Assembly (NCBI GenBank): GCA_040390725.1
Contig: JAZJXT010000006.1
Location: forward strand, 367 to 64,366
Direction: 5' to 3'
From: Patescibacteria group bacterium
GTDB taxonomy: Bacteria > Patescibacteriota > Minisyncoccia > Phycocordibacterales > UBA9973
DNA length: 64,000 bases
Part shown: piece by piece, positions 1 through 62,575 of the stretch
Layout of the letters: each line of letters opens with the position of its first letter
Position numbering within the stretch: the stretch's first letter is position 1
Made by a program: the position numbers and the translations under genes
Notes under the pieces: generated by a model
What the model was told of the DNA's origin: nothing
Databases searched by the model: none
What the model saw: only the letters and a program-made list of their open reading frames with translations

Positions 1-185
1 CAGGGTATGCTCCTTTATCATAAAGATAAAGATTATTGAGGTTTACTCAATAGGGTTTCCCCATTCGGAAATCTCCGGATCAAAGGTTGCTAGGCACCTC
101 CCCGAAGCTTATCGCAGCAACGCCACGTCCTTCATCGCCTCTTAAAGTCAAGGCATCCACCGTACGCCCTTAAATTTCCTGTTAA
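1..185 (-). rRNA. rrl: 23S rRNA, 5' end (the gene continues beyond the window start)
   Basis: The reverse complement of 1-185 matches the conserved 23S 5' domain (GGATGCCTTGAC...GATGAAGGACGTG...GCGATAAGC...GATTTCCGAATGGGGAAACC). No 16S rRNA is found upstream on the minus strand within 5 kb. Confidence 0.8.
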
Positions 186-4583: not shown

Positions 4584-5165
4584 CTAGCTCTTTTTTAAAG
4601 CATGTGTGGATAACTCCTTGGCCTGCAAAACAACCTCATGAGGAAAATCAAGTATATCTCGTATTAGCTTATCATACATATTTAACCTATAAACAAAGTC
4701 TTTCGTATCAAAAATAGCATAAATTATTTCAGTTCCTAGCTCAGCTTCCAGCTTTTTTACGCCTTCTTCTATCTTATTTTTACTTAACTTGTCGCCTACT
4801 ATCAACAAATCCACCCTACTACTCTTGTTTTTGATAAATATACCAGAAACCAAAAAAAGTTTTATTTTACCTATTTTTTTAAAATTATCTAATATTACTT
4901 GCTTGTCTAAATTCTCAGAGCTCAACAAAAGAGTCTCAAATTCAATCTTGTATTTAAAATTAGAATCAAAAATATATTCCTGTCCGTGTTTTTTTATAAA
5001 ACCTGAGGAAATAAGAAGCTTGATTTCCTTGCGGACAGCATCGGCAGTGACTCGGCTTCGTTTTGCAATATCTACACCTTGAAAACCTTTTGTTTTATTC
5101 AATAAAAAAAGCCTCATGATCTTGACCCGAGCCGGACTGCCTAAAATTTTCCCCAATATTTCCAT
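4584..5165 (-). CDS. hypothetical; N-terminal winged-helix-like domain and C-terminal minimal nucleotidyltransferase-like segment (tentative)
   Basis: ORF track; C-terminal SGIFIKNKSSRVDLLIVGD resembles the GS...D.D motif of nucleotidyltransferases. Confidence 0.3.
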   Translation of the reverse strand: MEILGKILGSPARVKIMRLFLLNKTKGFQGVDIAKRSRVTADAVRKEIKLLISSGFIKKHGQEYIFDSNFKYKIEFETLLLSSENLDKQVILDNFKKIGKIKLFLVSGIFIKNKSSRVDLLIVGDKLSKNKIEEGVKKLEAELGTEIIYAIFDTKDFVYRLNMYDKLIRDILDFPHEVVLQAKELSTHALKKS

Positions 5166-5258
5166 AACTACTTTATAAACCTTTTTTACTAAAAAAACAA
5201 GGGCAAAAAGAAAGCCCGGAAAATTATTTATTCAAATAATTTTCCGGGCTAAAAATAA

Positions 5259-5645
5259 TTAACTAACTAATGTTATATCTTTTGAAGTCTTAAAGATAAA
5301 AACTGTCTTAGGGGGAAACTTTTGATCAGTTGCCCCATCAAAAATCTCAACCTCAACATGCTCGAATGTTTTAAACACTCTCACAAACTGACAAGAATAA
5401 TGACCCGGCTTTGTCTTCAGCGTATCAAGCTTGTACTGTGGCTTCATCGCTATGAACAGATTTTTTCTAAACAATTCCGGGGAAAAATTTATTATATCCG
5501 TAATATCTTGTAATTCTTTCGGAGTACAAAAGCAATCCAGTCCGAATGAGCTGGATGTAGCTTTAGAATAAATATCCCCATACATTTTAGCCCTTGGAAG
5601 CCCTAGATCACGCAAGCTTTTAAAAACCAAATTTTCTTTTGTCAT
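5259..5645 (-). CDS. hypothetical protein
   Basis: ORF track only. Confidence 0.3.
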   Translation of the reverse strand: MTKENLVFKSLRDLGLPRAKMYGDIYSKATSSSFGLDCFCTPKELQDITDIINFSPELFRKNLFIAMKPQYKLDTLKTKPGHYSCQFVRVFKTFEHVEVEIFDGATDQKFPPKTVFIFKTSKDITLVS

Positions 5646-5744
5646 AAGACATTATTTTTACTAAAACTCGCCTACTCTTTAAAGGATTTTCGGCTACTCC
5701 TTATTTATTTGTCAAAAAACTTTACCAAGCTCAAAAAAGAACAA

Positions 5745-5825
5745 ACACCAGCTTTTAAAAAGCTGATTCTTGAGTTGTTTTTAAAAACTTTCACAACACA
5801 AAAATCAAATTTCTACTTTATAAAA
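5745..5825. repeat. ~80-bp repeat (R8 copy 1): bidirectional terminator plus conserved spacer, downstream of serC
   Basis: aacaccagctttt-aaaaagctg...ttgagttgttttt...acacaaaaatca.atttcta aligns at ~75% with 10172-10250. Confidence 0.55.
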
Positions 5826-5834
5826 AAATATTCA

Positions 5835-6950
5835 TTATGTCAATACCAGACCTTTTAGGACCCTACAAAACTCTTCTACTTCTTGCCTTGAATGGCTGGG
5901 GAAATTCCCCAGCCTGATTTGTTTTTCTTTATCTTCCCCATAGCCACTAGCCACCAAAAAACCCTTTTCTTTCAAACTTTCTATTATTTTTTTCGACCCA
6001 TTTTTTGTTTCAGCTACTATCACAGTCTCAGAGCGCATTTCTTTATTATTAATTAACGGTTTTAATTCTTTGCATTTTTCTAATGTAGAATATATTAATT
6101 TTGCTTTTACTTTTATCTCACTTTTTAAATTCTCTACTCCTACACTTAAATAATCCTTGCAAACTTCATTTAATAAATACATACCGAAAACATTTGGCGT
6201 TTCTGGAGTTTGATTTTTCTCAGAATATTTTAAAAAACTCGCAAATGAATGATAAGAACCCGTATATTGTTTATTCTTTTTTTCTATCTCCTCCGCTTTT
6301 TTCAAAGCTCGCGGACTGACAAATAGCACGCCGAGCCCCGCCGGCAAGCCGAAGCCTTTTTGTACTGAAAAAAATGCACAATCAACTTTTGAAAAATCAA
6401 CATCGCACACCGGCGCGCTCGACACGATGTCGAGCGCGATTAACTTGTCCGGGAATTTTTCATAAACTTTTTCCAGAAAACTATTAGGTAAAAGTACCCC
6501 ATTAGTAGTTTCATTATGGGTCATACATATTAATTCCGGATCGCAATCACTGGGTATATCCTCCAAAGAAAATGAGCGATCCTCACGAGCTAATATTTCA
6601 GTACTCACTCTGCCTTGATCTTTACTAATTTCAGAAAATTTTTTAGAAAAATATCCATCGACAAAATGCAAAGTATTTTTCTCCGAACAATTCTGCACGA
6701 CACGTTCCATGAATTCTGTCGCGGAACAAGCATAAAAAACATAATATTCATCGGGAATATTCAAAAGTTTTTTTAAGTTACTTGATAAATCCTCATAAAG
6801 TTCCATAAACTTCTCTCCCCTGTGTGATATCGAACCGATATCTTCTCTACCAGCTTGCTCAATAAATTCCCCGAATTTCGGATGAAGATTACTTGGACCA
6901 ACTGTAAAATAATTTAATTTCATAAATTTAAATAATTGTTCTTGTTTCAA
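5835..6950 (-). CDS. serC: phosphoserine aminotransferase (class V aminotransferase)
   Basis: Length and motifs of class-V PLP aminotransferases (FSVQKGFGLPAGLG). Operon context with serA and a serB-containing gene. Confidence 0.7.
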   Translation of the reverse strand: MKQEQLFKFMKLNYFTVGPSNLHPKFGEFIEQAGREDIGSISHRGEKFMELYEDLSSNLKKLLNIPDEYYVFYACSATEFMERVVQNCSEKNTLHFVDGYFSKKFSEISKDQGRVSTEILAREDRSFSLEDIPSDCDPELICMTHNETTNGVLLPNSFLEKVYEKFPDKLIALDIVSSAPVCDVDFSKVDCAFFSVQKGFGLPAGLGVLFVSPRALKKAEEIEKKNKQYTGSYHSFASFLKYSEKNQTPETPNVFGMYLLNEVCKDYLSVGVENLKSEIKVKAKLIYSTLEKCKELKPLINNKEMRSETVIVAETKNGSKKIIESLKEKGFLVASGYGEDKEKQIRLGNFPSHSRQEVEEFCRVLKGLVLT

Positions 6951-7932
6951 CAGTAAATGATAAACTATTGGATAAATTATTATTCTTAGAATTCATAAAT
7001 TTAAAAAGACGATTTGAAACAAATTGCGCGATGTGTTTTTGCGCCTCTTCCGTACTGCCTCCTATGTGTGGAGTCAAAATAACATTCGGTAATTTTTGTA
7101 ACACATTTACTACTTTTTCATTATTACTTTTCGGCTCTTCGGGAAAAACATCCACCGCAGCTCCGGCTAAGTGCCCGGACTTTAAGCTGTGAGCTAAAGC
7201 TTCCAAGTTTACTACTTTTCCACGACTAAGATTCAAAAAATACGAACCTTTACGCATTATTTTAAATTCTTTTTCTCCAATCAAATTATGATTTTCAGCG
7301 CGAGCATCAATATGTAAAGTCACAATATCAGACTTTCTCAAAAGTTCTTCCATGCTGTCACACTTTTTTGCACTTCCCAATGCAGGCCTATCTGCAATAT
7401 CAAAATAATAAACTTGCATACCCATAAATTCCGCCATAAATGAAAGATGTGAACCAATATTCCCATAACCAATAATCCCCAAAGATTTTCCTCTCACTTC
7501 AAAACTCCCCTCTGAGCTTTTATTCCAAACTTTTTTGTGCAAGTTAACGCTTTTATCAAAAACTTTTCGTAAAAGCATTATCATCTCACCCAAAGCAAGC
7601 TCTACTACACTCCTGGTGCTGGAATATGGCGCATTAAATACTGAAACTCCATAATGTCCGCAAGCCAAAAGATCTATCTGGTCAGTACCTATACAAAATG
7701 CTCCCACTGCACGAAGGTCCGGCGCATTTTCCAAAACTTTTTTTGTCACCTTTGTTTTTGACCTGATGCCTAAAATAGAAACACCTTTTAAAGCCCCGAT
7801 GAGCTCTTCTTCATTTAAGGCTTGTACTAAATTTTTTACTTCATATCCTTTTTGGATAAAAAACTTTTCCGCTTCCAAATCAATATTTTCCAACAATAAT
7901 ACTTTTATTTTATTTTTTCTTATTTTTTGCAT
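6928..7932 (-). CDS. serA: D-3-phosphoglycerate dehydrogenase, short form (D-isomer 2-hydroxyacid dehydrogenase)
   Basis: NAD-binding GIIGYGNIGSHLS and the catalytic region typical of D-2-hydroxyacid dehydrogenases; adjacent to serC. No ACT domain (334 aa). Confidence 0.7.
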   Translation of the reverse strand: MQKIRKNKIKVLLLENIDLEAEKFFIQKGYEVKNLVQALNEEELIGALKGVSILGIRSKTKVTKKVLENAPDLRAVGAFCIGTDQIDLLACGHYGVSVFNAPYSSTRSVVELALGEMIMLLRKVFDKSVNLHKKVWNKSSEGSFEVRGKSLGIIGYGNIGSHLSFMAEFMGMQVYYFDIADRPALGSAKKCDSMEELLRKSDIVTLHIDARAENHNLIGEKEFKIMRKGSYFLNLSRGKVVNLEALAHSLKSGHLAGAAVDVFPEEPKSNNEKVVNVLQKLPNVILTPHIGGSTEEAQKHIAQFVSNRLFKFMNSKNNNLSNSLSFTVETRTII

Positions 7933-7949
7933 ATATAATTTTACGATTA

Positions 7950-10127
7950 TTAAATAATAATTTTTAAAACATCTAGGAACGACCTTGCTTGAAAATCAGA
8001 ACGAAGAGCTACGTTTTTCCTGTATATATGCTCAGTATATGCTATAAAATTTTCTGCTATGCCACTTTCTTTTATTTCATAATCAGTGTACCCATCACCT
8101 ATAATGATTGCCGGCATCGGCAAAGAAAGAGCTTTTAGTTGTTTTACTTTTCCTAAATGTTCAGAAGTTAACCGTGAAGAATCAACTCCTATTACTCGGC
8201 CGAATTTATTAAATTTAAATTTATTGGCAAATACATTCCCTGCTGGTATGCCTAATTTTTTTATAGTCGGCAAGATCATCTCTTCGAAACCACCGGAAAC
8301 TACATAAATATTTTCAGCATTTGTATTGAAGAAATCTTCATTGTCCAAGAATGATTTGGTAATAAATTTGGTTATCTGCTTGCCTGCTTCTAATACTTGG
8401 TCTCGTGTCGGCGCCATCAATGCCATTCTTTTTGCCAGTGATTCATCGAAACTTATTTCACCATTCATCCCCGAATTAGTAATATCTTTTATTTTCCAAA
8501 TAATTTGTTTTTTATTCGGGTTATTTTTTAAAGATAAATCTGCCAAAAAATCCAAAGATTCAACACATACAATAGTGCTATCAAAATCAAAAATAATACT
8601 TTTGTATTTTAACTTTTTACTATCACCAACCATTACTCCCCTGTTAAATAAATTCATCGGGTCTACGTCTTTTTTTAATTTATTTAATAAATTCATTTCT
8701 TTTTCACTATACAAAAAACTCAAAAATGATCGACCATTTCCCTTTGGATCTCTTACTGTTTTTCTGCCACATCCATGCTCAGCAGAAATAGTGCCGCCCA
8801 GCATCAAAGGAACATTTAAAAGTTTATCGTATATTTTTTCAGCCTTTTTCCAATTCTTCACAGAGTCTGGCAAAAAATTAAAATGTAAGTGCTGGTCCCC
8901 GATATGCCCCCACATTGCCGTGGCAGGAGCACTATTTTTTGGACAAAATTTCTTAAAATCTTTCTCCGCCTTTTTGTATATTTTCAATAAAACTTTAAAT
9001 TTAGAAACAGGTACGGCAAAATCAGTCCCGAGTTTTTTCATATTATTTTTTTTCAAGAAATTACGTACAGCACTTGGTATGCCATACCTGACTATTTTTA
9101 TAACTTCTTCACCATATTCTTTATTTACTTTAAAAGACTTCTTTGCTCTCTTTATTATTTTTTCTATTTTTTTATCCCCTTTCAAATACTCCACCTCTAC
9201 CAAAGAACTTTCCATGCTAAACGGAAGCTTGTTATTTTTAGAAAACAATTTTAAAGAATTTGAATCAATAAATTCCAAAGAAATAATCCCCTTTTGTCTT
9301 TTTAAATTAAATTTAAATTTTTGAAGATTTTCCGCAAAAGCCAAGGCTTTTTTTTCTTTATTAAAAGAATAAATATATGACATTATTTCCTTTTTTGGAG
9401 AAATGCCCACTTCGGCCTGAAGGATCAAGCCGAAAATTCCCTCTGTACCAATAAAAAGATCTATCAAATCCATATTTTTTGAAGTTAAAACTCCAGCGGA
9501 ATTTTTAACTTTTGGATTCGGCAATTTTGGTAAATTTATAATTTTTCCATCGAGTTTTATTTTCCAATTCTCTGCACTATATTTACCTCGAGGAATATAA
9601 AATATTTTTCCATTTGGCAACATTACCCATAATGCTTTCACATGGTCACGAGTCGGACCGAAACCAAAAGTCCGTGGCCCGGAGGCATTCGTCGCCACAT
9701 TGCCACATAGAAATGCATTCACCTCTCCCGGATGTGGAGCATAAAAAAGATTTTCTTTATCTAGTGCTAAAATTAATTTTTTTAACACTACCCCTGCGGA
9801 CACTATACAAGTCGTTTTATTTTTATTTAAAAATATTCCATTTGATATTTTTTTATAATTTTTTAAGTCCCCTATATTTTCAAATAATTTTTCAGTGCTT
9901 AAGATTATCGCTTCTTCATATGGCATGATACCGGCATTAAGCCCTGTCTTTGCTCCGCTAAAAGTTATGGGTACTTTATTTTTTATTGACTCATTTACGA
10001 TTCTTTTTACTTCAATAATATTTTCAGGATAAAAAGCTCGGCAAGAACTAGCAGACCTCAATGGCTTTATCCTGCCTGCATCCAATAAGTTCTCCTCTTT
10101 TATTATTTTTTGTTTGATTTTTTTCAT
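7950..10127 (-). CDS. serB: fusion protein: N-terminal FAD-linked oxidase (GlcD/D-2-hydroxyacid dehydrogenase type) with a C-terminal HAD phosphoserine phosphatase
   Basis: N-terminal FAD-binding PCMH-like region (ITFSGAKTGLNAG) and the FAD-oxidase C-terminal motif GHIGDQHLH (GHxGDGNxH-like). C-terminal HAD motifs FDFDSTI ... GDGYTD. Confidence 0.65.
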   Translation of the reverse strand: MKKIKQKIIKEENLLDAGRIKPLRSASSCRAFYPENIIEVKRIVNESIKNKVPITFSGAKTGLNAGIMPYEEAIILSTEKLFENIGDLKNYKKISNGIFLNKNKTTCIVSAGVVLKKLILALDKENLFYAPHPGEVNAFLCGNVATNASGPRTFGFGPTRDHVKALWVMLPNGKIFYIPRGKYSAENWKIKLDGKIINLPKLPNPKVKNSAGVLTSKNMDLIDLFIGTEGIFGLILQAEVGISPKKEIMSYIYSFNKEKKALAFAENLQKFKFNLKRQKGIISLEFIDSNSLKLFSKNNKLPFSMESSLVEVEYLKGDKKIEKIIKRAKKSFKVNKEYGEEVIKIVRYGIPSAVRNFLKKNNMKKLGTDFAVPVSKFKVLLKIYKKAEKDFKKFCPKNSAPATAMWGHIGDQHLHFNFLPDSVKNWKKAEKIYDKLLNVPLMLGGTISAEHGCGRKTVRDPKGNGRSFLSFLYSEKEMNLLNKLKKDVDPMNLFNRGVMVGDSKKLKYKSIIFDFDSTIVCVESLDFLADLSLKNNPNKKQIIWKIKDITNSGMNGEISFDESLAKRMALMAPTRDQVLEAGKQITKFITKSFLDNEDFFNTNAENIYVVSGGFEEMILPTIKKLGIPAGNVFANKFKFNKFGRVIGVDSSRLTSEHLGKVKQLKALSLPMPAIIIGDGYTDYEIKESGIAENFIAYTEHIYRKNVALRSDFQARSFLDVLKIII

Positions 10128-10171
10128 ATTATTTTGCTCTTTATTTATTTTTACAACTGAACCTAAATAGA

Positions 10172-10250
10172 AAACACCAGCTTTTTTAGAAAGCTGGTGT
10201 TTGGGTTGTTTTATTTAAAATTTACGACACAAAAATCAGCTTTCTATTGA
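10172..10250. repeat. ~80-bp repeat (R8 copy 2) upstream of the ser operon
   Basis: See 5745-5825. Includes the hairpin aacaccagcttttttagaaagctggtgtt. Confidence 0.55.
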
Positions 10251-10375
10251 ATTAGAAGCTGATGAGGAAGCTACAGAAAGCCCGGAAATTTTCTTTAAAA
10301 TTGTGGCTGATCTAAACATAATATGAATATAGCACATAATAACAAATTATAAAAGTCAGCTGTGGAAAACCCTTT

Positions 10376-12010
10376 TTAATGCTGATAAAATCCTCTCGCC
10401 TCCGAATCAGGAATCATTATTAAATTCACACCTTTTTCTTTGCAAAGCTCTACTGTTTTGTCATCATTTACCGAGCCGGAAGTGGAAAAAATTGTTTTTA
10501 CTCCCCTGTCTATTAATACCTTAGGCGCATCAGGAAATGGGAAGAAACTATCACTATATGCCACTGCATTATTCAAATCCGCCTCTTTTGCATTTGCATC
10601 AAAAGTTCTAGCTGCATCATCGGCACGCAAAAGAGCAAGCTTTGCAGCGCCGACGCGGTCTTGCTGACCGACACCATTACCTACTAGCCGTCCATCTTTT
10701 ACTAAAGTTATCGTATTGCTATTTGAAGTCGCCCCCACCGCCCAAGCTAGCACAATATTTTGCATTTCCTCCTCCCTTATGGGGAGGATTGAGGAGGGGC
10801 GTATTTCAGGCACAAAATCATAGTTCGGTTGCATCATAAATCCACCTCGCACATAACGAAATCTTTTTGCAGTATCGAGCGACGCCATTCCCGCTTTTTC
10901 TATATTTTTATTTGCGAGTAATCTACACTTCCCTTTTTTTCTAGAAAGTATATCTATTGCTTCCGCTGAAAATGAAGGCGCGGAAACAATATCGAGCAAC
11001 CTCCTCACTCCTTCCGGAGAATATTTATGAATTAATTCTTCCGCTATTTTTTCATCGACATGAAAATTGAGCATCACTGAACCGCCGAAAATAGCACGCA
11101 AATCACCAAGCAACATTTTACCAACTGCTTCTATTCCGTCTTCTCCAAATCCCGCTCCGCAAGCATTGCCGTGTTTTGCACCAATTGCTATAAATGGAAC
11201 TTTCCCAAAATTTTTCTCAAACCCCGCGCCGATATGCGTCATAGTTTGCATCATTCTGTCCAAATCACAAATGTTGTTATAACTCATCGGACTTCCTGCT
11301 ACGAGCTCCCATTTATGAATCGCCAAACTGTCACCACCAGATAAATTCTCATACAGACTCGCCGGCTTCTGATAAGCATTCTCACCATAAACACATTCTA
11401 AATTTTTCTTGCCGAAAATTCCTTTGTATCCTCCAGCACTGTGATACTCACTAGAAATAGAACAATATTTTGAAACTACCGCTTCTACTTTTGCCGCTAA
11501 ATTATTTAAAAATTCTTCACGATTTTCTTCACCATTTTTTAACCACTCTAAAACTTTCATTCTATCGAGAGGGTCACAAATAGTAATGCGTCTGCCTTTT
11601 GCACCCGAGCGAATCAATGCTACTCCACCCATATCCGTCTGTGCTATGACGGATTCTTTTGTAGCTTCCGGTTTTGCTATTTCATTTTCCAATGGATATA
11701 AATCAGAACAAACTAAATCAATCCAAGGAATTTCATATTTCTCAAGTTCAGCCAAATGTTCCGGCGTGTCGAGAGCCAAAAGCCCGCCATGAATTTTCGG
11801 ATGAAGGGTAACTACGCGATGACTCAAAATAGCGGGTACTCCGGTAATGTCTGCAACATCAGTGACAGCTATCCCCGCTTCAGTTAAATGTTTTGCTGTA
11901 CCTCCGGAAGAAATTATTTTCCAACCCAAAGCCACTAAGCCCTCGGCAAATTCTTTGATACCTTGCTTGTCATATACTGATATTAGGGCTGTTTTTTGCT
12001 TATTTTGCAT
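10376..12010 (-). CDS. purH: bifunctional AICAR transformylase / IMP cyclohydrolase
   Basis: N-terminal MGS-like domain ALISVYDKQGI...SSGGTAK...TLHPKIHGG, colinear with PurH. Confidence 0.8.
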   Translation of the reverse strand: MQNKQKTALISVYDKQGIKEFAEGLVALGWKIISSGGTAKHLTEAGIAVTDVADITGVPAILSHRVVTLHPKIHGGLLALDTPEHLAELEKYEIPWIDLVCSDLYPLENEIAKPEATKESVIAQTDMGGVALIRSGAKGRRITICDPLDRMKVLEWLKNGEENREEFLNNLAAKVEAVVSKYCSISSEYHSAGGYKGIFGKKNLECVYGENAYQKPASLYENLSGGDSLAIHKWELVAGSPMSYNNICDLDRMMQTMTHIGAGFEKNFGKVPFIAIGAKHGNACGAGFGEDGIEAVGKMLLGDLRAIFGGSVMLNFHVDEKIAEELIHKYSPEGVRRLLDIVSAPSFSAEAIDILSRKKGKCRLLANKNIEKAGMASLDTAKRFRYVRGGFMMQPNYDFVPEIRPSSILPIREEEMQNIVLAWAVGATSNSNTITLVKDGRLVGNGVGQQDRVGAAKLALLRADDAARTFDANAKEADLNNAVAYSDSFFPFPDAPKVLIDRGVKTIFSTSGSVNDDKTVELCKEKGVNLIMIPDSEARGFYQH

Positions 12011-12033: not shown

Positions 12034-12103
12034 AAAACAAAAGCACCCCGAGCAAATGCAAGGGATGCTTTTATTATAGTACTTTTGAAAAGTTATTTCA
12101 ATT
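12034..12103 (-). promoter_or_regulatory. R2a: consensus sigma70-like promoter (TTGAAA-17-TATAAT) followed by a leader hairpin and U-tract, upstream of purH
   Basis: The minus strand reads ttgaaataacttttcaaaagtactataat, then agcatcccttgcatttgctcggggtgcttttgttttt, then ATG of purH. Near-identical copy at 13598-13668. Confidence 0.55.
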
Positions 12104-12905
12104 AATTATTATTTGTACTTTCCACTATAGTTTGCTTATCTATATTCCAATGTATAGCTTTATTCTTAAGAATTTTTCGTGCTGATAGATCGTTAATATA
12201 AACGTCTTTCCATAACCGTAAAACGTCATCGTGTTTTTCAACTAAAAATACTAACTTTTTTTCTAATTTAGTTATCACTGTTTTTAAGCCGGAAGGATTT
12301 ACCCTAACAAGGTTAATTACTTCATCCAGAATTTGCCTTGTTTCTTTAAAGTTTTGCGCATTATCTATTTTGCTATTCATAATAAATGCAATCTTAGGAA
12401 TGACTTTATTATTTTCAAATATCTCTATTTCTTGCATAGTCTCTGCGTCCCCTGAATCACCAAACGAAACTCCTGGCTCAAAAAATATATTATTTAAATC
12501 TTCTAATGAATTTGTATTTTTTATATCCTGCTCAAGAAGTTGAAAATATTTATTTACAAAACTTTTAAAAAGAGGGCGATCAGACTGTCTAATTTTTACA
12601 AAATAATGAATATGGAGATTTTTAAAATCAGAAAGTTCTTCGATTGTTGTTTTTGCACTATTTATTTTATTAGTAAATTGAGCAATAAACATCTCTTCTG
12701 CCATCTTAGCTTCAATTGGAGCATTTTTTGTACTATCTCGCTTGTACTCCTCCTCTATTTTTTCAGATTCTTGTTTCTGTTGAAATTCAGTATGCTTAAC
12801 AAGTCCTTCACCAATAGCAAGCCCTGCGAGAACAGCTAAGGCATTAGTAACTAAAGGGTTAGCCATAATTTTCTTTCCTATATTCATTCCTTCTTTTTTT
12901 CCCAT
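12102..12905 (-). CDS. hypothetical protein with an N-terminal TM segment
   Basis: ORF track. Confidence 0.35.
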   Translation of the reverse strand: MGKKEGMNIGKKIMANPLVTNALAVLAGLAIGEGLVKHTEFQQKQESEKIEEEYKRDSTKNAPIEAKMAEEMFIAQFTNKINSAKTTIEELSDFKNLHIHYFVKIRQSDRPLFKSFVNKYFQLLEQDIKNTNSLEDLNNIFFEPGVSFGDSGDAETMQEIEIFENNKVIPKIAFIMNSKIDNAQNFKETRQILDEVINLVRVNPSGLKTVITKLEKKLVFLVEKHDDVLRLWKDVYINDLSARKILKNKAIHWNIDKQTIVESTNNN

Positions 12906-13026
12906 AAATTTATTATAAAGTTAATTAGTAATCCGACTCATATATAGTACTCTCTCTCTCTGCACGTCAAGCAAGTATGATTATCCACAGATTCATTTAC
13001 TTGTACATATCTACTAAATATGGTAT

Positions 13027-13129
13027 CTTATAAATGTGCCTGTGGGCGTAAGCCCCTTATCGGCTAAGGATCTTCCAAAGCTGAAGACAGGTACATAAAA
13101 AAACCCAAGCCAGTGCTTGGTTTTTTTTA
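13027..13129 (+). ncRNA. R3a: candidate ~100-nt structured RNA with GNRA hairpin (gggcGTAAgccc) and its own intrinsic terminator, convergent with the 3' end of 13132-13578
   Basis: ~80% identity to the minus-strand copy at 47497-47593, with different but self-complementary terminator stems (compensatory). Ends in aaacccaagccagtgcttggtttttttt. Confidence 0.5.
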
Positions 13130-13131
13130 TT

Positions 13132-13578
13132 TTAATCTTCGTCTATTCCCTGAGTGTAAAGTCTTTGGTCGTATGGCATAACACTCCAAAACATTATATT
13201 GCCATCTCCGACTTGCTTTAAAATAATTTTTATTTTATGTTTTTTGTTATTTAATATCGCATGAAATCCCCAATACTGAACTTGTTTCATTTTATAAAAA
13301 CCGTCGTTTTGCATTTTACCATATTTTTCAATTTGCATACGATGCTCTTGAAGCGTTCCGCATTTAGGAATTATTTCTAATGCTTTTTTGAGAAGTATAA
13401 ATTTTAATATTTGCTCTTTGAGATTTCTCGGGGTACGATTCGGCTTATACTGAAGATGATTGAAACCATCTGAATTTAAAATTATTTTCGTTTGAAAATA
13501 CGGGCAATGAATTTCTTTTCTAAATTCATAAAGTGCTTTTGCTTTTGCGCGAATGTTTTCAAAATCTTGCATAATCAA
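13132..13578 (-). CDS. hypothetical protein, paralog family X (HCP...NS.GF.HL.Y...GDGNI.F.SV motifs)
   Basis: Clear paralogy with 47042-47455 (shared motifs HCP, IILNSDGFNHLQY/IIFNSKGFYHLRY, VGDGNIMFWSV/IGDGNITFLSV). No known family recognised. Confidence 0.5.
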   Translation of the reverse strand: MIMQDFENIRAKAKALYEFRKEIHCPYFQTKIILNSDGFNHLQYKPNRTPRNLKEQILKFILLKKALEIIPKCGTLQEHRMQIEKYGKMQNDGFYKMKQVQYWGFHAILNNKKHKIKIILKQVGDGNIMFWSVMPYDQRLYTQGIDED

Positions 13579-13597
13579 AAGTATAACACAAAAATTA

Positions 13598-13668
13598 AAA
13601 ACAAAAGCGCCCCGAGCAAATGCAAGGGATGCTTCTATTATAGTACTTTTGAAAAGTTATTTCAATTC
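13598..13668 (-). promoter_or_regulatory. R2b: second copy of the promoter/leader-hairpin module, upstream of paralog X1
   Basis: ttgaaataacttttcaaaagtactataat plus hairpin gcatcccttgcatttgctcggggcgc plus U-run; ~90% identical to 12034-12103. Confidence 0.55.
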
Positions 13669-13710
13669 TACCACGGAGGAGTTTTCTCTGTAAAATAATT
13701 TACCTAATAT

Positions 13711-14013
13711 CTATGTGGGCTGTCCAGTATCCTTATCTATCAAATAATCCCCTATCAGATTTCCATTCTTATTAAAAACTTCCATGGAAAAACAAGAAGC
13801 CATTTTTTTACTCATTGAATTCTTAAAAACAACCGTGTTGCCTTCCTTTCCGTCACTTAAACTAACAAATTCATTTAAAATATTCTCGGGATCAAGCTTA
13901 TGAAAAGATACTAATTTTTCTATTGCCTGATCAACTGTTAAAACTTCTCCAATTTTAACAAAATCACTGAACACAGGTGGTTTATCTTTTTTACTACTCT
14001 CCATGGTAACCAT
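13711..14013 (-). CDS. hypothetical protein
   Basis: ORF track. Confidence 0.3.
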   Translation of the reverse strand: MVTMESSKKDKPPVFSDFVKIGEVLTVDQAIEKLVSFHKLDPENILNEFVSLSDGKEGNTVVFKNSMSKKMASCFSMEVFNKNGNLIGDYLIDKDTGQPT

Positions 14014-14201: not shown

Positions 14202-14573
14202 TTATTTCAACTCAACTTTGCCACCTACTTCTTCGATTTTCTTTTTAACTTCTTCAGCTTCAGCTTTCTTCATACCTTCTTTCAATGTAGCTGGAGCGCC
14301 GTCTACTAAATCTTTCGCTTCTTTCAATCCTAGACCCAAGACTTCTTTTACGATTTTCATAACAGCGATTTTTTGTTCACCTGCTGATGCTAGCACTACT
14401 GTGTAAGCACTCTTTTCTTCTTCAGCTCCGGCGCCAGCGCCTGCTGCAGGACCAGCCACAGCGACAGCCGCAGCAGATACTCCGAATTTTTCTTCGATAG
14501 CCTTTACTAAATCATTAAGATCAAGCACAGACATACCTTCTATTTTTTCTAACAAATCTTTAAATTTTTCCAT
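14202..14573 (-). CDS. rplL: 50S ribosomal protein L7/L12
   Basis: Ala/Gly-rich hinge and the conserved C-terminal domain [27 protein letters not shown]. Confidence 0.9.
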
Positions 14574-22373: not shown

Positions 22374-22526
22374 AAATAATTAAATTGGGATCTGCCCTGT
22401 TAATATCACGCTCTTTTTCTTTAACCCTTTAAAAACTAAAGAATTAAAGGAGAAAAGCGGATTAATCAAGACCGTATTCCCTTGCCTGCCATACTAGCAA
22501 ATTAGAAATAAATAGTCAAATATTTG

Positions 22527-22923
22527 TGGAACTGACGAGAATTGAACTCGTGTGCAAAAGGTTGTTGCAGAGAAATCGACATGCTTGGCTCATTTTTTTG
22601 TTTAAATTTTAAAATTCTTAAATGAGCAAAATATTTTAAAATCGAGTTCTAAGTTTTCGTGAAATATGCGAACAAATATTTCCTTATCCCGATAATATTA
22701 TGCCTCGTCTCATATATCGGAAGTCTATGAGGGAGACACCAGTTTGGCTTACGCGAAAGCTGGAGCGAAAGCAAAATCATTCATACCGAAGTATGGAGAA
22801 GCTTTTGCAAACGCCTTAGAAGTCAATTTTGCAATTAACATTTGAGCGAATTTTTTCGAGATTACGCTCATGCTCGGCATGCATCAATAGCAAAAGGCCT
22901 TTTGTCTATGCCTTGCAGTCCCC
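22527..22923 (-). ncRNA. ssrA: tmRNA (SsrA)
   Basis: Minus-strand 5' GGGGACUG pairs with 3' CAGUUCC + A (the acceptor stem has a G3-U wobble, the alanine identity element). T-arm acgag-TTCAATT-ctcgt. Internal tag-like reading frame ...gat ttt gct ttc gct cca gct ttc gcg TAA (..DFAFAPAFA*). Immediately adjacent to smpB. Confidence 0.7.
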
Positions 22924-28035: not shown

Positions 28036-28773
28036 ACCTTGTTTTTTTATTACACTTCCTCTTCTCTGTAATTCAACCAATCATTTATAAAATCTTTAAA
28101 CTCTTTGTGAGATTGAAAATACTCTGGAAAATTTTCCAAATTTAAAATAGATTTTTCTATCCTGAAAGACCCGCAGTGATCTATAAAACTAGAAAATTTA
28201 TAATCAGCTAAAAACTTTTTTGTTTCTGCTAAATTTTTAATTCCCTCTTCCTTCCAAGTCTTATCTATCAACTTTACTGGATTTAATCCGATATAAGCAA
28301 ATAAATATTTTAAATAATTATCACCCATAGCGTGTCTACCTTTAAATGTTCCTTGAAATAAACTGCCAGTACGATTGTTCTTTTTATTGAAATACATAGT
28401 ATATGCCGTTGTTAACTTCTGCATAAATAAACTAATTCCATTTTGAACTTTTTCTCTAGCTAGAATATGAAAGTGATTAGGCATTAAACAATAAGAACCA
28501 ATTTCAACCAAAGTATCACTTTTTTCCAATTCCCAAAAATCTGACAAGGTTAAACCTTGTTTTTGGTAATCCCCTATATCTACTTTTTCGATACTATTAC
28601 ATAAATACAAAAGAACCATAAATCTATCGTAGTCATTTATGTCATCAAAAATAATTCTTTTATCTACTCCTCTATTATACAGATGGAAAAATTCACCAAT
28701 TGAAAATTCAATATTTCTAGTCATTGTTATATTTTAACAAAAAATAAAGGCAAAAACAAGGTTTAACCTTGTT
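28025..28773 (-). mobile_element. IS200/IS605-like (RAYT-like) element: Y1 transposase gene bracketed by identical palindromic hairpins
   Basis: Hairpins aacaaggtt(t)aaaccttgtt at 28025-28043 and 28755-28773, plus a third copy inside the CDS at 28545-28562. Confidence 0.55.
28050..28724 (-). CDS. IS200-like Y1 (HuH) transposase / REP-associated tyrosine transposase-like
   Basis: YCLMPNHFHIL (HuH motif of Y1 transposases) and GSLFQGTFK (GxLWQxR-like). Confidence 0.6.
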   Translation of the reverse strand: MTRNIEFSIGEFFHLYNRGVDKRIIFDDINDYDRFMVLLYLCNSIEKVDIGDYQKQGLTLSDFWELEKSDTLVEIGSYCLMPNHFHILAREKVQNGISLFMQKLTTAYTMYFNKKNNRTGSLFQGTFKGRHAMGDNYLKYLFAYIGLNPVKLIDKTWKEEGIKNLAETKKFLADYKFSSFIDHCGSFRIEKSILNLENFPEYFQSHKEFKDFINDWLNYREEEV

Positions 28774-35999: not shown

Positions 36000-38774
36000 C
36001 TAATCGCTCTGTCTTTCGTATTTTGCCATGATTTCGGCCTCTACCTCTTCCCTATCCCTGCCATATTTTAGATATGAAAGCTCTTTTAGGCTGTCCACTA
36101 TCTCAACATTCCCGGCCTCTGGTGCAAGGGTATGCATATTAAAAGGCTTTGTCGGCTGGCCATTTACCAGCATGCTCACATAAGCATTATAATTATCAAG
36201 CTTCATGATATCTATCGCTTTAAAAGTCGGCTGAAATCTTTTTTCCAAAAAATCTGCATCTTCGGAGCTGACGCGGAAAATAGCCATCGAACCGACGTTA
36301 CCAAAAACAGCATCTTTGATATCATCTTCGAGCTGAGCTATATACTGGTGCGCAATATTTAACGACAAACGATATTTACGAGCTTCGGAAAGAATCGAAG
36401 CGATAGAATCAGTCGTGACGTTTTGGAATTCATCTATATACAAATAAAAATCATTCATCTTTTTACCAAACATATCAACACGAGAAAGAGCCGCCATTTG
36501 TATTTTACCCACGAGCACGAGACCTATCAAATTCGCATTCATCTCGCCCAGGCGCCCCTTGGAAAGGTTCACAAGAAGAATTTTTTTATTGTCCATAATT
36601 TCTCGAAAATTAAAAACGGACTTTTCTTGGAGCACTACGGGACGCATGATGTCATTTGAAATAAAGTTATCAAATTTGGAAGTAATATAAGGCACGAAGT
36701 TCGCCAAACTTTGATCTCCCGTCGTCTGCTCGGCTGAAATCCAGAATTGCTTGATGATAGGATTTTTACATTTTGCGAGTTTCATATCACGAAATTCTTT
36801 ATCACCGAGTACGCGCGAAATCTCGAGCAAAGTACAGCCGGAATCCGGGTCTTCCATTATTAAAAAAGCGGAGTTTTTAAAATACTGTTCGAACATCGGC
36901 CCACCGGAAGTTTTCATGTCGAAAAGTTTATTAAAAATTCCCATCAATTCATTTACCACAAAAGTTTTCTGCTCAGGATATTTGCGGTCAAATTCGAGCA
37001 TATTTAGGCCCATCGGGCGCGCAGTGTAGGCAGGGTCAAAATAAATAACATCATCAATGCGCTCTTTTGGAATACGCGAAAGAATAGTCTGAATATCTGT
37101 GCCGTGCGGATCAATATAACAACAACCATCACCATTTCGTATGTCTTGCGTTATCATGTTCAACATAATATTGGTCTTACCGGTACCCGTCTGACCTATA
37201 ACATACATATGTCGCACGCGGTCCTCGCGAGCCATATGTATTTCAGTGTCGCGCCCACGATAGCTATTTACTCCCAAGGTAATCCCCTCTTTGCCCATCT
37301 CCAAAGGAGCCGGAGCGACTCCTGCCTTTGCTTCTTTGAGTTGAGGCATTCCTAAAATTCCTATCGGGAAATGAAAAACAGAAGCGAGCTCTTTTAAGTT
37401 CATCGGCATTATTCTTTTCGGCATAAAAGCGCGATACGAAAAATCATGAAAAAATTCTTTCAGAGCGGAACCTTTTAACTGCTCAAATAAAATAGAATTG
37501 CTGGCGGGCTCGGTGAATTGATTAAAAGAAGATTCTATTTCTGCCAAGATTGATTCAGCTCTTTCTTTATTTTCAGCAGAAGCGACGACGCGAATACCGG
37601 CTTTCATAATAGTACTTTTTAATTTGTTCGCTATATTTTCAGCCGCATTTTGATCAACAGACCTGCGCCCTCTCATATATTTTGGATCATTCTTTCCCTT
37701 ATTATCAAAATCACCCAAGACAAGATCTCTAGAAGCTTTCCAGATAGCTTGATGAAATTTATAAAAATTATCAGATGCATGCATTATGGATGTTCCGCTT
37801 TTTACATCGTCTAAAATCATATGAAAATCTTGAGTGAATTTTTCTCCCGCAGGAGCAAAGAGAAATTGAATAGCGGCACCCTCACCTTCTGTTTTTAATT
37901 TAGAAAAAACATTTAAAACCGTACTCATAGGATCATGCTCGATATTATCGTAAGTTTTTATCGGCAACACAGAACGCTGAGAAAAATGCGCACATGCACC
38001 GACAGAAACACCCTTGTCATTAAATACATTATAGTCATCTAAAACTTCTCGGATTTTTGCATCATGATAAAAAGCTAAAACTTGTTTTTCAAAAAGTGAA
38101 ATACGATTGTTTGGTATTGCAGCATAAATAACCACTGAATCGCTCTGGCTACCCAAGGCTACTTCCAAAACAAAATAATTATCCTTGGAATTATTCCTAT
38201 CTTCGGATATGGACTGCATGCCGGCATAAAATTGTTCCATCGCGCCGATAAATTCTTTGAAACCTTTTTTATCGCCTTCATCTTTTGGCGGAGGCAATGT
38301 GACTTCAAAAAGCGTCATATTTAAAGACTTCCAAAGAGGTGTGCCTTCTTTTAAGCCGGGTATTATTTGCCCTGTACTTAAATATTGAATCAATAGTCTA
38401 TGAAAATCATCATCGATATGCGGGCTATTCATTTCCTCAACTACAGACATGGCATTGCGAATTCCTTTTGTAAGCATAATACCCAAGAGCTCTTCCATGG
38501 TAGCATCATGAGGCTCCGGTTTTAATTTTAGAACGATGGCTTCGGCTTCTTTTTTTTCAATGATATGATTTTTATGCACGGCTTGCTCTAGTGGAATTTT
38601 TTTATATTCATGAGCAACAGCCCGAGCTGCTTCTTCGGCAGCATGTTCAAAATGCCCTTTGTCTTTTAATTCCTGTTCTTTTTTAGCGACATGCGCGCGC
38701 AAATAATCAAGCTCTTCATGGGGAGTTTGAAACTTCGGCATTTCTTTTAAAAAACTTCCTGCAGTTCCTAACAT
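36000..38774 (-). CDS. large P-loop ATPase of the VirB4/VirD4 (TraG/TraD, AAA_10/DUF87) type
   Basis: Walker A IGQTGTGKT, Walker B LYIDEF, downstream ARKYRLSLNIAHQ (RKxG...TQ/AHQ-like motif of FtsK-HerA-clade T4SS ATPases), and a ~500-aa N-terminal extension. Confidence 0.5.
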   Translation of the reverse strand: MLGTAGSFLKEMPKFQTPHEELDYLRAHVAKKEQELKDKGHFEHAAEEAARAVAHEYKKIPLEQAVHKNHIIEKKEAEAIVLKLKPEPHDATMEELLGIMLTKGIRNAMSVVEEMNSPHIDDDFHRLLIQYLSTGQIIPGLKEGTPLWKSLNMTLFEVTLPPPKDEGDKKGFKEFIGAMEQFYAGMQSISEDRNNSKDNYFVLEVALGSQSDSVVIYAAIPNNRISLFEKQVLAFYHDAKIREVLDDYNVFNDKGVSVGACAHFSQRSVLPIKTYDNIEHDPMSTVLNVFSKLKTEGEGAAIQFLFAPAGEKFTQDFHMILDDVKSGTSIMHASDNFYKFHQAIWKASRDLVLGDFDNKGKNDPKYMRGRRSVDQNAAENIANKLKSTIMKAGIRVVASAENKERAESILAEIESSFNQFTEPASNSILFEQLKGSALKEFFHDFSYRAFMPKRIMPMNLKELASVFHFPIGILGMPQLKEAKAGVAPAPLEMGKEGITLGVNSYRGRDTEIHMAREDRVRHMYVIGQTGTGKTNIMLNMITQDIRNGDGCCYIDPHGTDIQTILSRIPKERIDDVIYFDPAYTARPMGLNMLEFDRKYPEQKTFVVNELMGIFNKLFDMKTSGGPMFEQYFKNSAFLIMEDPDSGCTLLEISRVLGDKEFRDMKLAKCKNPIIKQFWISAEQTTGDQSLANFVPYITSKFDNFISNDIMRPVVLQEKSVFNFREIMDNKKILLVNLSKGRLGEMNANLIGLVLVGKIQMAALSRVDMFGKKMNDFYLYIDEFQNVTTDSIASILSEARKYRLSLNIAHQYIAQLEDDIKDAVFGNVGSMAIFRVSSEDADFLEKRFQPTFKAIDIMKLDNYNAYVSMLVNGQPTKPFNMHTLAPEAGNVEIVDSLKELSYLKYGRDREEVEAEIMAKYERQSD

Positions 38775-59931: not shown

Positions 59932-60049
59932 AATTAAATGGTGTTAATACACCCCACCCGCTTAATACAAGCGGGTGTTTTTTTATCTAAAATCAAAATA
60001 ATACCCAATAAAATATGAATATTTCAACCCTTGACTTATTGCTATAAAT

Positions 60050-61546: not shown

Positions 61547-62575
61547 ATGGCAAAAACAAAAGAAAAGTTTATTTATACATACATCTGGCTCGACGGCTAC
61601 AAGCCGGAGCCGAACTTAAGGGGCAAAGACAAAATCCTCGAAGGTATTAAAACATTAAAAGAACTCCCAGGCTGGTCATTTGACGGTAGCTCAACACAGC
61701 AAGCAAAAGGTCATTTCTCGGACTGCTTACTCAATCCGGTAAAAATGATTCCTGACCCAGCACGAGAAAGAAGCTTTTTGGTTTTCTGTGAAGTTTTAAA
61801 TCCGGATGGCACTCCGCATATTTCAAATACTCGTGCACAACTCGCTCCATATGATTTCAAAGGAAGCTGGTTTGGAATGGAACAAGAATATGTATTTATA
61901 AAAAATGGCCGACCGATAGGTTTCCCCATAGATGCAAAAAAGTTTCCGAAACCTCAGGGCGAATATTATTGCGGAGTCGGTGCAGAAAATATTTCCGGCC
62001 GAGAATTAATGGAGGAGCACACTTTGATGTGCATCGAAGCAGGCATTCCTCTGACTGGCACAAATGCCGAAGTTCTCTTAGGTCAATGGGAATTCCAGCT
62101 TTTTGGACAAGATGGCGCACTGGATACTGCTGACCTCCTTTGGCTCACTCGCTATCTTTTAGTACGCACTGCGGAATCTTACGGCGTATCAGTTTCCTTT
62201 CACCCAAAACCGCTCACCAAAGGCGACTGGAACGGTTCCGGACTTCACACAAACTTTTCTACAAATAAAATGCGTGGCGCTGGCGGTAAAGAATTATTCC
62301 AAAGAATTTACAAAGCATTTGAAAAAAATGCAAAAATGCATATTGATCATTATGGATCAGACAATCACCTACGCCTCACGGGAAAACATGAAACACAATC
62401 TATCCACACATTCTCGACTGGTGTTTCCGACCGTGGAGCATCTATCAGAATTCCGCTTTCGACCGACAAAGAAATGCGTGGTTATCTCGAAGACCGACGC
62501 CCAGCATCAAACGGCGACCCATACAAAATCTTGCTCGCAATTTGCAAAACATTAAAAGAAGCAAAAGCGGATTAA
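61547..62575 (+). CDS. glnII: glutamine synthetase type II (eukaryote-like GSII)
   Basis: ~342 aa; N-terminal YIWLDG and the catalytic-domain motifs NGSGLHTNFST ... are typical of GSII rather than GSI or GSIII. Confidence 0.65.
   Translation: MAKTKEKFIYTYIWLDGYKPEPNLRGKDKILEGIKTLKELPGWSFDGSSTQQAKGHFSDCLLNPVKMIPDPARERSFLVFCEVLNPDGTPHISNTRAQLAPYDFKGSWFGMEQEYVFIKNGRPIGFPIDAKKFPKPQGEYYCGVGAENISGRELMEEHTLMCIEAGIPLTGTNAEVLLGQWEFQLFGQDGALDTADLLWLTRYLLVRTAESYGVSVSFHPKPLTKGDWNGSGLHTNFSTNKMRGAGGKELFQRIYKAFEKNAKMHIDHYGSDNHLRLTGKHETQSIHTFSTGVSDRGASIRIPLSTDKEMRGYLEDRRPASNGDPYKILLAICKTLKEAKAD

Follow-up and report, generated by a model that had tools for sequence, protein, structure and literature searches.

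The DNA analyzed here, a 64,000-nucleotide stretch (hereafter, the window) from a Nomurabacteria/Paceibacterota-like member of the Patescibacteria, carries a minus-strand operon for serine biosynthesis that is bracketed by two copies of a repeated element, both of which lie within an island between purH and a gene encoding a helix-turn-helix (HTH) protein (Table 1). The first gene of the operon specifies a fusion of a flavin adenine dinucleotide (FAD)-linked oxidase to a SerB-type phosphoserine phosphatase, and is followed by serA and serC. All three genes are arranged head-to-tail as a tight operon, with intergenic gaps of 17 nucleotides (nt) between the fusion gene and serA and 4 nt between serA and serC. 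This arrangement had been proposed in the first-pass annotation of the window, with which our list of open reading frames (ORFs) and domain searches agree. The serC product contains an Aminotran_5 domain and matches the NCBIfam serC models below their cut-offs. Its ATG start at 6923 is the one called on the contig from the Logan assembly, and an alternative TTG start at 6950 would give a 371-residue protein (5835-6950) overlapping serA.

Table 1. Positions of the serine operon, its flanking elements and the borders of the island within the window
Feature	Position	Strand	Description and basis
purH	10376-12010		backbone gene
Inserted island	5166-10375	-	attenuator, ser operon, truncated attenuator, DUF805b RNA, ORF128; comparison with related genomes
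Promoter-like extended -10 box	10326-10334	-	TGCTATATT; promoter scan; 6 nt upstream of leader-peptide ATG
Candidate leader peptide	10236-10319	-	MFRSATILKKISGLSVASSSASNSIES, then stop; 27 codons, 9 Ser codons (8 TCN, 1 AGC)
Candidate attenuator, copy B (complete)	10164-10273	-	covariance model R1, 97.4 bits; fold z = -5.6
Copy B segment 0	10253-10263	-	AUCAGCUUCUA
Copy B segment 1	10224-10246	-	UAGAAAGCUGAUUUUUGUGUCGU
Copy B segment 2	10187-10209	-	ACAACCCAAACACCAGCUUUCUA
Copy B segment 3		-	AAGCUGGUGUUU, then Us
Copy B terminator hairpin	10172-10202	-
Copy B U-run	10165-10171	-
Fusion ORF	7950-10127	-	FAD oxidase/HAD phosphatase, 725 amino acids (aa)
Fusion, N-terminal part	8628-10127	-	about 500 aa; predicted FAD- and metal-dependent D-2-hydroxyacid dehydrogenase domain, uncharacterized clade; Pfam, alignment, profile, fold
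Fusion, C-terminal part	7950-8627	-	about 225 aa; PSPH/SerB-type phosphoserine phosphatase (HAD-IB); profile and motif matches
serA	6928-7932	-	334 aa; type II 3-phosphoglycerate dehydrogenase catalytic core without ACT domain; PRK11790, structure scores
serC	5835-6923	-	phosphoserine aminotransferase, 362 aa from ATG; Aminotran_5 and serC models
Element copy A (truncated)	5735-5831	-	without segment 0; R1, 61.6 bits
Copy A segment 1	5793-5815	-
Copy A segment 2	5756-5778	-
Copy A hairpin	5747-5767	-
Copy A U-run	5733-5746	-
DUF805b RNA motif (Rfam RF02914)	5669-5702	-	5' leader of ORF128; 39.5 bits, gathering score 35.6, full-length model
ORF128	5259-5645	-	island gene, 128 aa; no Pfam or NCBIfam match
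Hairpin terminator closing the island	5213-5250	-	perfect 17-bp hairpin; inverted repeat and terminator scan
HTH gene	4584-5165		backbone gene, 193 aa

Enzymes of the serine operon

The phosphatase (HAD) half of the fusion retains the catalytic motifs DFDST, VSGG, GKVKQLK, and GDGYTD, and the solved structures nearest to it are phosphoserine phosphatases (3kd3, 116 bits; human PSPH, 77 bits). Its score with the HAD-SF-IB model TIGR01488 (47.1 bits) exceeds the cut-off of 45, and its score with the SerB equivalog TIGR00338 (72 bits) lies under the cut-off of 144. P0123, a stand-alone relative that is 64% identical to this half, heads serB-serA-serC operons in 24 contigs. In the closest relatives, which are found on groundwater contigs, serB (220 aa), serA (407 aa, with an ACT domain), and serC (359 aa) are followed by genes for a second 2-hydroxyacid dehydrogenase, glycerate kinase, enolase, and PPDK. 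Fusions of this HAD domain to 2-Hacid_dh are also known. The window shares its gene order, and a PSPH-type HAD-IB phosphatase of 64-66% identity, with these SerB-SerA fusions and serB-serA-serC operons (P0153, P0181, P0224; L007-L010), and its SerA and SerC are 69% and 68% identical, respectively, to those of the L007-L010 operons. In the relatives, however, SerB is either stand-alone or fused to SerA, SerA keeps its ACT domain, and both the FAD oxidase and the flanking element are absent. The oxidase is also missing upstream of the closest stand-alone SerB genes, where a tRNA-like sequence (L006) and an unrelated ORF (L040) are located. The gene-free stretch of about 500 nt that precedes serB in one relative (L010:1140-1640) is GC-rich with many hairpins and could be a structured RNA.

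Pfam identifies 2-Hacid_dh and 2-Hacid_dh_C in the serA product, and NCBIfam classifies it as phosphoglycerate dehydrogenase. The protein scores 470.5 bits with PRK11790 (cut-off 404), although only model positions 6-322 of 410 are covered, and about 300 bits against type II structures (E. coli, Brucella, yeast Ser33) compared to 195 bits against type III and 123 bits against type I. It ends at residue 334, where the ACT domain of the 407-residue relative would begin. Judged by these comparisons, the window SerA belongs to type II but no longer has an ACT domain, which makes it "short" in a formal sense. This assignment changes the basis of an earlier proposal that short-form SerA enzymes reduce 2-oxoglutarate, because the 3-phosphoglycerate/2-oxoglutarate transhydrogenase activity has been assigned to type II (ACT-bearing) enzymes and not to the short type III enzymes (PMC13434204). 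The activity is tied to a CXC motif, in which the second Cys is the more important, together with a Phe/His "NADH lock", and in type I enzymes an Arg blocks 2-oxoglutarate, the use of which is permitted by an Arg-to-Ala replacement (PMC13434204). In the window SerA, the sequence A-F-C aligns to C128-F-C130, so that the second Cys is kept and the first is Ala. This Ala stands at the position of the blocking Arg of type I, and the NADH-lock positions are Tyr and Asn, as against Phe153 and His208 in yeast Ser33. Production of D-2-hydroxyglutarate (D-2-HG) by this enzyme is plausible, and its sequence retains part of the published signature.

For the N-terminal half of the fusion, Pfam reports FAD_binding_4 (65 bits) and FAD-oxidase_C (86 bits), both over their cut-offs. 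An alignment of 35 sequences, comprising this domain and its nearest homologs, defines a coherent family of about 500 aa with 29 invariant positions, all of which are kept in the window protein together with the invariant motifs GHIGDxHLHFN and SAEHG. The family profile scores 252 bits against LctD, 199 bits against mouse LDHD, 178 bits against both 3pm9 and 9qgz (a chain deposited as glycolate oxidase in an entry titled D-lactate dehydrogenase), 159 bits against human D2HGDH, which ranks sixth, and 73 bits against alkyl-DHAP synthase (ADPS). A Foldseek search with an AlphaFold2 model of the oxidase domain only, which has a predicted local distance difference test score of 89.3, returns the same order: ranks 1-25 belong to the GlcD/D-LDH/D2HGDH group, with human D2HGDH fourteenth, and ADPS appears from rank 26. 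Hence by both profile and fold the closest structures are LDHD, LctD, D-LDH, and D2HGDH, all before ADPS; the domain is 19-21% identical to the solved enzymes. These comparisons, which had been suggested when the fusion was first noticed, place the domain in the GlcD/D-LDH/D2HGDH group of the VAO/PCMH superfamily, that is, among the FAD-linked D-2-hydroxyacid dehydrogenases. By the same comparisons it is not the D2HGDH ortholog that the initial description of the domain had implied, given that the D2HGDH score falls below those of LctD and LDHD and that Lys401 of D2HGDH is not conserved at its aligned position.

We mapped the residues described for human D2HGDH (PMC7801405) onto the window protein using the LDHD and 3pm9 alignments, a procedure that reproduces the description of LDHD in that paper. 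The His-His-Glu metal triad (H434, H441, and E475), the catalytic His (H476), and the carboxylate-binding R386 correspond to H408, H415, E450, H451, and R347 in the window, all of which are invariant in the 35-sequence alignment; the 2-hydroxyacid chemistry is therefore predicted to be intact. Of the residues lining the distal pocket of D2HGDH (PMC7801405), Asn443 is matched by the family-invariant Asn417, Tyr432 aligns with Trp406, which is likewise aromatic, and Thr390 is replaced by Pro351, with Pro also being present at this position in the D-2-HG-active yeast enzymes Dld2/3. As mapped, the pocket residues are polar or charged and not hydrophobic. Lys401 of D2HGDH, which is strictly conserved and forms a salt bridge to the C5-carboxylate (PMC7801405), aligns to Gly367, two residues before the D of D-F-A-V-P, and a nearly invariant Lys365 is located two residues upstream.

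Recycling of D-2-HG by the oxidase half is plausible on the basis of these residues. The oxidase would re-oxidize a D-2-hydroxy acid by-product of the pathway, for which the best candidate is D-2-HG formed by SerA from the 2-oxoglutarate that SerC releases. We regard D-2-HG as a possible physiological substrate, with a probability somewhat below even, and several observations weigh against it. In addition to the D2HGDH score, the Gly at the Lys401 column, and the altered CXC and NADH-lock positions of SerA, the nearest relatives of the oxidase are only 36-37% identical, no ser genes lie beside the nearest oxidase homologs (five contigs with three distinct contexts, including P0003, P0005, and P0010), and the larger ORFs of the window show no gene for electron-transfer flavoprotein (ETF), ferredoxin, or another acceptor. 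Longer members of the oxidase family (P0018, P0287, P0263, P0336, and P0265) have no informative additional Pfam domain.

Several of these observations would also fit a reading in which the fusion were real but the oxidase acted on some other D-2-hydroxy acid, such as D-lactate, glycolate, D-glycerate, or D-malate, with no tie to the SerA by-product, in which case the fusion would be a neutral or regulatory accident of insertion. The top sequence and fold matches are indeed D-lactate and broad D-2-hydroxyacid dehydrogenases, and the remaining members of the clade reside in unrelated gene contexts. Nevertheless, the joining of the oxidase to the enzyme of the committed last step, within an operon under a putative Ser attenuator, argues for a pathway-linked role, and the pocket, with its invariant Asn417 and nearly invariant Lys365, resembles those of D2HGDH and Dld2/3 and not that of LDHD, which is hydrophobic (PMC7801405). 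On balance, we consider an unconnected substrate to be somewhat unlikely.

The flanking element and its relatives

Direct repeats of about 75% identity had been placed at 5745-5825 and 10172-10250, which is essentially right. A 77-bp core (5743-5815 and 10172-10246) is 80.5% identical (blastn E-value of 3e-10 against the whole window), and a weaker gapped extension over about 130 bp (approximately 5697-5826 and 10137-10257) is 72% identical. Neither nhmmer nor the covariance model detects any other copy in the 64 kb. Each repeat had also been thought to contain a bidirectional hairpin terminator; this holds for 10172-10202, which is called on both strands, but at 5747-5767 the hairpin call is confined to the minus strand. 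A weak third repeat match at 59916-59984 proved to be an unrelated GC-rich terminator. We also rejected the idea that the element is a dispersed repeat resembling miniature inverted-repeat transposable elements or repetitive extragenic palindromes, as the 64 kb contain only two copies and the related loci, about 300 kb in all, contain one, target duplications are absent, and the orientation to genes is constant. No Rfam family matches the element, and a sub-threshold match to Phe_leader (18.6 bits, E-value of 0.94) is not evidence of one.

In copy B, which precedes the fusion gene, pairing is possible between segments 0 and 1 (0:1), 1 and 2 (1:2), and 2 and 3 (2:3), and the 1:2 helix is mutually exclusive with the 2:3 terminator. 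Six of the nine Ser codons in the candidate leader peptide fall within 10 codons; the run SSSASNS covers segment 0, and the TGA stop (10236-10238) is located inside segment 1. A Ser density this high is reached in 84 of 20,000 shuffles (0.4%) of the 181-nt leader. Copy A begins 20 nt past serC, and its sole ORF is five codons long (MNIFL), overlapping the serC stop as TAATG. It is best read as the terminator of the operon. A conserved small protein ending in RELIFAL was considered as the reason for the conservation of segment 1 and discarded: in the window copies the open frame upstream spans 8-9 codons, and the true upstream ORF is not in the same frame in every copy. By this comparison, segment 1 is conserved as RNA.

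A third copy of the element was detected by nhmmer in a related genome (L027:20940-21034), and a metagenome scan with a segment 2/3 pattern identified ten more contigs, in all of which segments 0 and 1 are conserved. In total, 13 further copies were obtained using only the segment 2/3 pattern or nhmmer with the element profile, and pairing was counted on an alignment of 14 copies. The retrieval pattern fixes segments 2 and 3, and their conservation is therefore partly by construction, whereas segments 0 and 1, the promoter, and the ORFs lie outside it. Across the 14 copies, 81% of cells are paired in helix 1:2 (33-42% in slid controls) and 88% in helices 0:1 and 2:3 together (28-46% in slid controls); overall, the range is 81-94% for paired cells and 28-46% for slid controls. 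Compensatory changes occur, and one of them, in L036b, is triple, altering one position in segments 1, 2, and 3 together. Four other copies (L031, L035, L038, and L039a) show the spacing TGCTATAYT + 6 nt + GTG/ATG, and in these a short ORF, often beginning MNKNI, opens 6 nt past the -10 box. Its codon run falls exactly on segment 0, and its stop lies inside segment 1 or at either end of it.

The codon runs correspond with the downstream pathways across loci, and the alternative helices are conserved. FFF runs precede prephenate dehydratase in L035 and L036 (two tandem copies), YFFF in L038 precedes genes for a class IV aminotransferase, prephenate dehydratase (PDT), and a prephenate dehydrogenase/PDT, and YYY in L039b precedes chorismate mutase. 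TTTSSTS runs in L027, L030, and L037 are followed by an ORF of 100 aa and a gene of the inositol-monophosphatase family. This conserved ORF of about 100 aa (MPWMLVVTGNNCGPTAHIHTIIAQAKE…; L027:21053-21415, L030:2153-2515, L037:1907-2209) has no Pfam match and stands between the element with its ITTTSSTS leader and the inositol-monophosphatase-family gene. Two element copies flank a single Asp/Glu-racemase gene in L039 (709-818 and 1574-1685), and two occur in tandem before prephenate dehydratase in L036 (2048-2162 and 1699-1825); paired copies are therefore recurrent and not peculiar to the window.

Because Phe/Tyr-run copies precede aromatic genes and copy B encodes the Ser-rich MFRSATILKKISGLSVASSSASNSIES, we propose that copy B is a serine-sensing leader-peptide attenuator, an assignment that we regard as likely. 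Transcription would begin at the extended -10 promoter just past purH, and the transcript would start with the 27-codon ORF, probably leaderless and rich in TCN Ser codons, with the four-segment RNA behind it. This RNA is predicted to form either 0:1 together with 2:3, the latter being an intrinsic terminator, or 1:2 instead. When charged Ser-tRNA is scarce, a ribosome stalled on the Ser run of segment 0 would allow 1:2 to pair, so that no terminator forms and transcription continues into the operon. With ample serine, the ribosome would reach the stop within segment 1 and mask this segment, permitting the 2:3 terminator to end transcription. Copy A, without segment 0 and a leader ORF, would terminate the operon after serC.

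Not all of the copies fit this mechanism neatly. An FFF run precedes a class II aminoacyl-tRNA synthetase gene in L032, FAYYF precedes the Asp/Glu racemase gene in L039a, L034 has an in-frame stop, copy A lacks a leader, and the element is absent from the related serB-serA-serC operons L007-L010. Moreover, only about ten of the element copies are independent. Such mismatches between gene and codon run, together with the differences between copies in upstream ORF frame and stop position and a conservation of primary sequence in segments 1 and 2 far beyond what pairing needs, might instead point to a regulatory RNA that senses something else, either as a riboswitch or as an attenuator bound by a protein or tRNA. 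This possibility seems improbable to us. No Rfam family is matched, the part of the element that varies is exactly the segment-0 codon run, which tracks the pathway (Phe/Tyr for aromatic genes, Ser for the ser operon), and all three stop positions fall either inside segment 1 or on its edge, a placement that leader-peptide attenuation requires.

Integrity of the fusion and origin of the island

Pfam assigns three domains to the fusion ORF, spanning residues 32-176 (FAD_binding_4), 276-497 (FAD-oxidase_C), and 511-683 (HAD), and the identical, intact 725-residue protein is present in both an NCBI metagenome-assembled genome of Patescibacteria and the Logan assembly of SRR26324628, although the two assemblies were probably built from the same reads. 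The junction reads …DPMNLFNRGV-M-VGDSKKLKYKSIIFDFDST…, with essentially no linker between the oxidase and HAD halves. Importantly for its authenticity, the conserved C-terminal motif of the oxidase (DPMNLFNRG) and HAD motif I share one reading frame; a frameshift artefact is therefore excluded, and two separate genes could have become one only through loss of a stop codon. No second protein matching both halves was found in a word-indexed search of 5.8 billion clusters, using either the full protein or the HAD half alone, or in an exhaustive phmmer search over 1.84 billion 50%-identity representatives. In the latter the fusion itself is the sole two-half match, and the next best score (269 bits) covers the oxidase half only, far under the expectation for two domains. 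These searches bear out the view that no comparable protein had been described, and such a FAD-oxidase/SerB fusion was not found in the literature that we searched. The two halves also differ in kinship, in that the 64-66% identity of the HAD half to its stand-alone relatives has no counterpart in the oxidase half, as given above.

That the fusion is a singleton from one metagenome sample nonetheless weighs against it. A consensus error, or a rare stop-removing variant, might have merged an adjacent FAD oxidase gene and serB, a scenario with which the single-member 90% cluster, the absence of a full-length match elsewhere, and the missing linker are all compatible. An in-frame ATG also sits exactly where a separate serB would be expected to start, the stand-alone P0123 beginning at MKYKSIIFDFDST, and could permit a separate SerB product. 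Such an artefact would, however, need a stop-codon substitution, and neither a stop nor a remnant of one is visible; the ORF is uninterrupted in both assemblies, and the oxidase would remain the first gene of the ser operon even if there were two genes. We consequently believe that the fusion is very probably real and that its origin as an artefact is quite improbable.

Scanning species-representative genomes for purH gave 19 Nomurabacteria/Paceibacterota loci (58-76% identity) that share the backbone rplJ-rplL-purH-HTH (193 aa)-MscS-like. In seven relatives, the HTH gene follows purH directly after a gap of 23-165 bp, and in ten others the purH-HTH slot is filled by 1-7.8 kb of other cargo, mostly secreted proteins. 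No ser genes are located between purH and the next backbone gene in any of the 19 loci, 17 of which span the purH-HTH junction, and the island is therefore interpreted as an insertion in a variable slot. Acquisition of the operon as a unit, as originally suggested, is supported by its absence from this site in the relatives, but the flanking repeats on which that suggestion was based are not a signature of acquisition. The reading of the repeats as ordinary terminators, or as scars of insertion in the form of a duplicated target sequence, takes its appeal from their bracketing an island that relatives lack and from the terminator-like hairpin in each, but it is very improbable given that no copy exists at the empty sites of the seven relatives, that the island runs past copy A to include ORF128 and contains no integrase or transposase (Pfam, NCBIfam), and that the element, conserved well beyond the hairpin, occurs at unrelated loci in at least ten other contigs with promoter, short ORF, and alternative helices. 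Codon usage, GC content, and GC content at third codon positions of the inserted genes are within the spread of the window's 40 other genes, so the compositional anomaly that acquisition might have been expected to leave is not seen; the source was therefore compositionally similar or the event is old.

ORF128 has no homolog in the 19 related loci, and tblastn finds only the Logan copy of this contig. Although it is preceded by a DUF805b motif, which shares part of its length with the weak extension of repeat A on its 3' side, ORF128 does not encode a DUF805 protein. The conserved backbone promoter of the HTH gene comes after the hairpin that closes the island. Cargo in the slot of other genomes (L011, L013, L014, L019, L020, L022, L023, L026, L027, and L029) usually begins with a signal-peptide protein (MKKY…), with a peptidoglycan-binding-like tail last in some genomes, and the slot looks like a hot spot of gene gain. 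Next to the island, on the far side of purH, ORFs of 267, 148, and 100 aa without a Pfam match occupy 12102-14013 on the minus strand, between rplL (14202-14573) and purH; rplL is directly beside purH in 19 of 19 related loci, and this segment is therefore a second lineage-specific insertion. Hints of mobile DNA elsewhere in the window are an IS200/Y1-type transposase-like ORF (28050-28724, minus strand) and a 924-residue ORF with weak TrwB/TraG coupling-protein matches (36000-38774, minus strand). The window also encodes a short glutamine-synthetase-like protein of 342 aa (61547-62575, plus strand), which may bear on glutamate/2-oxoglutarate nitrogen handling in a reduced genome, a tmRNA (22524-22922, minus strand; 110 bits), and, at its edge, the 5' end of a 23S rRNA gene (1-183, minus strand).

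Proposed working of the module and its known counterparts

Taken together, we favor, with moderate confidence, the explanation that the island is an inserted, self-contained serine module with a leader-peptide attenuator and a fused oxidase that recycles a by-product of the pathway. Ribosome stalling would control read-through into the operon. Since SerA lacks the serine-binding ACT domain, end-product control would rest on the attenuator, which may thereby compensate for the loss of this domain, and the oxidase would recycle D-2-HG or another pathway-linked D-2-hydroxy acid. A more far-reaching form of this proposal, which we hold to be unlikely, is that of a rewired module in which the oxidase-SerB enzyme recycles D-2-HG, so that both reactions pull the unfavorable SerA step from one polypeptide, ACT feedback has been replaced by a Ser-codon attenuator, and a modular Patescibacteria scaffold has been re-programmed for Ser, Phe, Tyr, Thr/Ser, and Ile/Val by exchange of codon runs.

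Genetic coupling of a D-2-hydroxyacid dehydrogenase to SerA has precedents. In Pseudomonas stutzeri and P. aeruginosa (PA0317), as well as in other d2hgdh-serA neighborhoods, SerA forms D-2-HG from 2-oxoglutarate and D2HGDH recycles it (PMC8651671, PMC9504171, PMC10025160), and serA and etfAB are among the commonest neighbors of d2hgdh in bacteria (PMC8651671). The window resembles these systems in having an FAD/Zn-type D-2-hydroxyacid dehydrogenase that is genetically linked to a type II-like SerA. Its oxidase, however, is from a different, uncharacterized clade in which Lys401 is not aligned, and is fused to SerB instead of being merely adjacent to serA; no ETF genes are seen nearby, and the partner SerA lacks both the ACT domain and the full CXC/NADH-lock signature.

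The proposed attenuator likewise resembles those of trpL, pheL, thrL, ilvL, and hisL in Proteobacteria (mechanism in PMC1183508), in which a short ORF with a cognate codon run overlaps the first of four segments, 1:2/3:4 pairing precludes 2:3 pairing, and an intrinsic terminator is formed by the last hairpin. Segments 0 and 1 of the element take the places of regions 1 and 2 in the classical scheme. In contrast to these classical systems, the scaffold in the window belongs to another sequence family, is found in Patescibacteria, and has no Rfam model; its leader ORF seems to be leaderless, starting 6 nt past the -10 box, and a single conserved scaffold serves with different codon runs. In Firmicutes such as Paenibacillus polymyxa, serA/serS are controlled by a T-box (PMC8002221), which has in common with our proposal that serine synthesis is placed under transcription antitermination that reads the charging of tRNA-Ser. 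The element in the window nevertheless has no T-box sequence, Stem I, or Rfam T-box match, and sensing would take place via the ribosome rather than by direct binding of tRNA. In the literature that we searched, we found neither a serine-specific leader peptide nor any leader peptide from Patescibacteria, an absence that is not proof of novelty. To our knowledge, a serine-specific leader peptide before a ser operon has not been described.

Patescibacteria, also known as the candidate phyla radiation, are commonly described as being without amino-acid biosynthesis and elaborate regulation. The window presents a complete phosphorylated serine pathway gained as a cassette in this group, headed by an oxidase-SerB domain fusion that is unique among about 15 billion predicted proteins. 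Should the D-2-HG proposal be correct, serine synthesis would here be coupled physically to the recycling of a by-product for the first time, which would raise the question of the electron acceptor in an organism without a respiratory chain. If the attenuator proposal is correct, this radiation would possess a family of ribosome-sensing attenuators, one of which would have the first leader peptide specific for serine. Such a family would imply tight coupling of transcription and translation in these minimal cells, and would represent a compact amino-acid-sensing scaffold that is re-programmable via codon changes.

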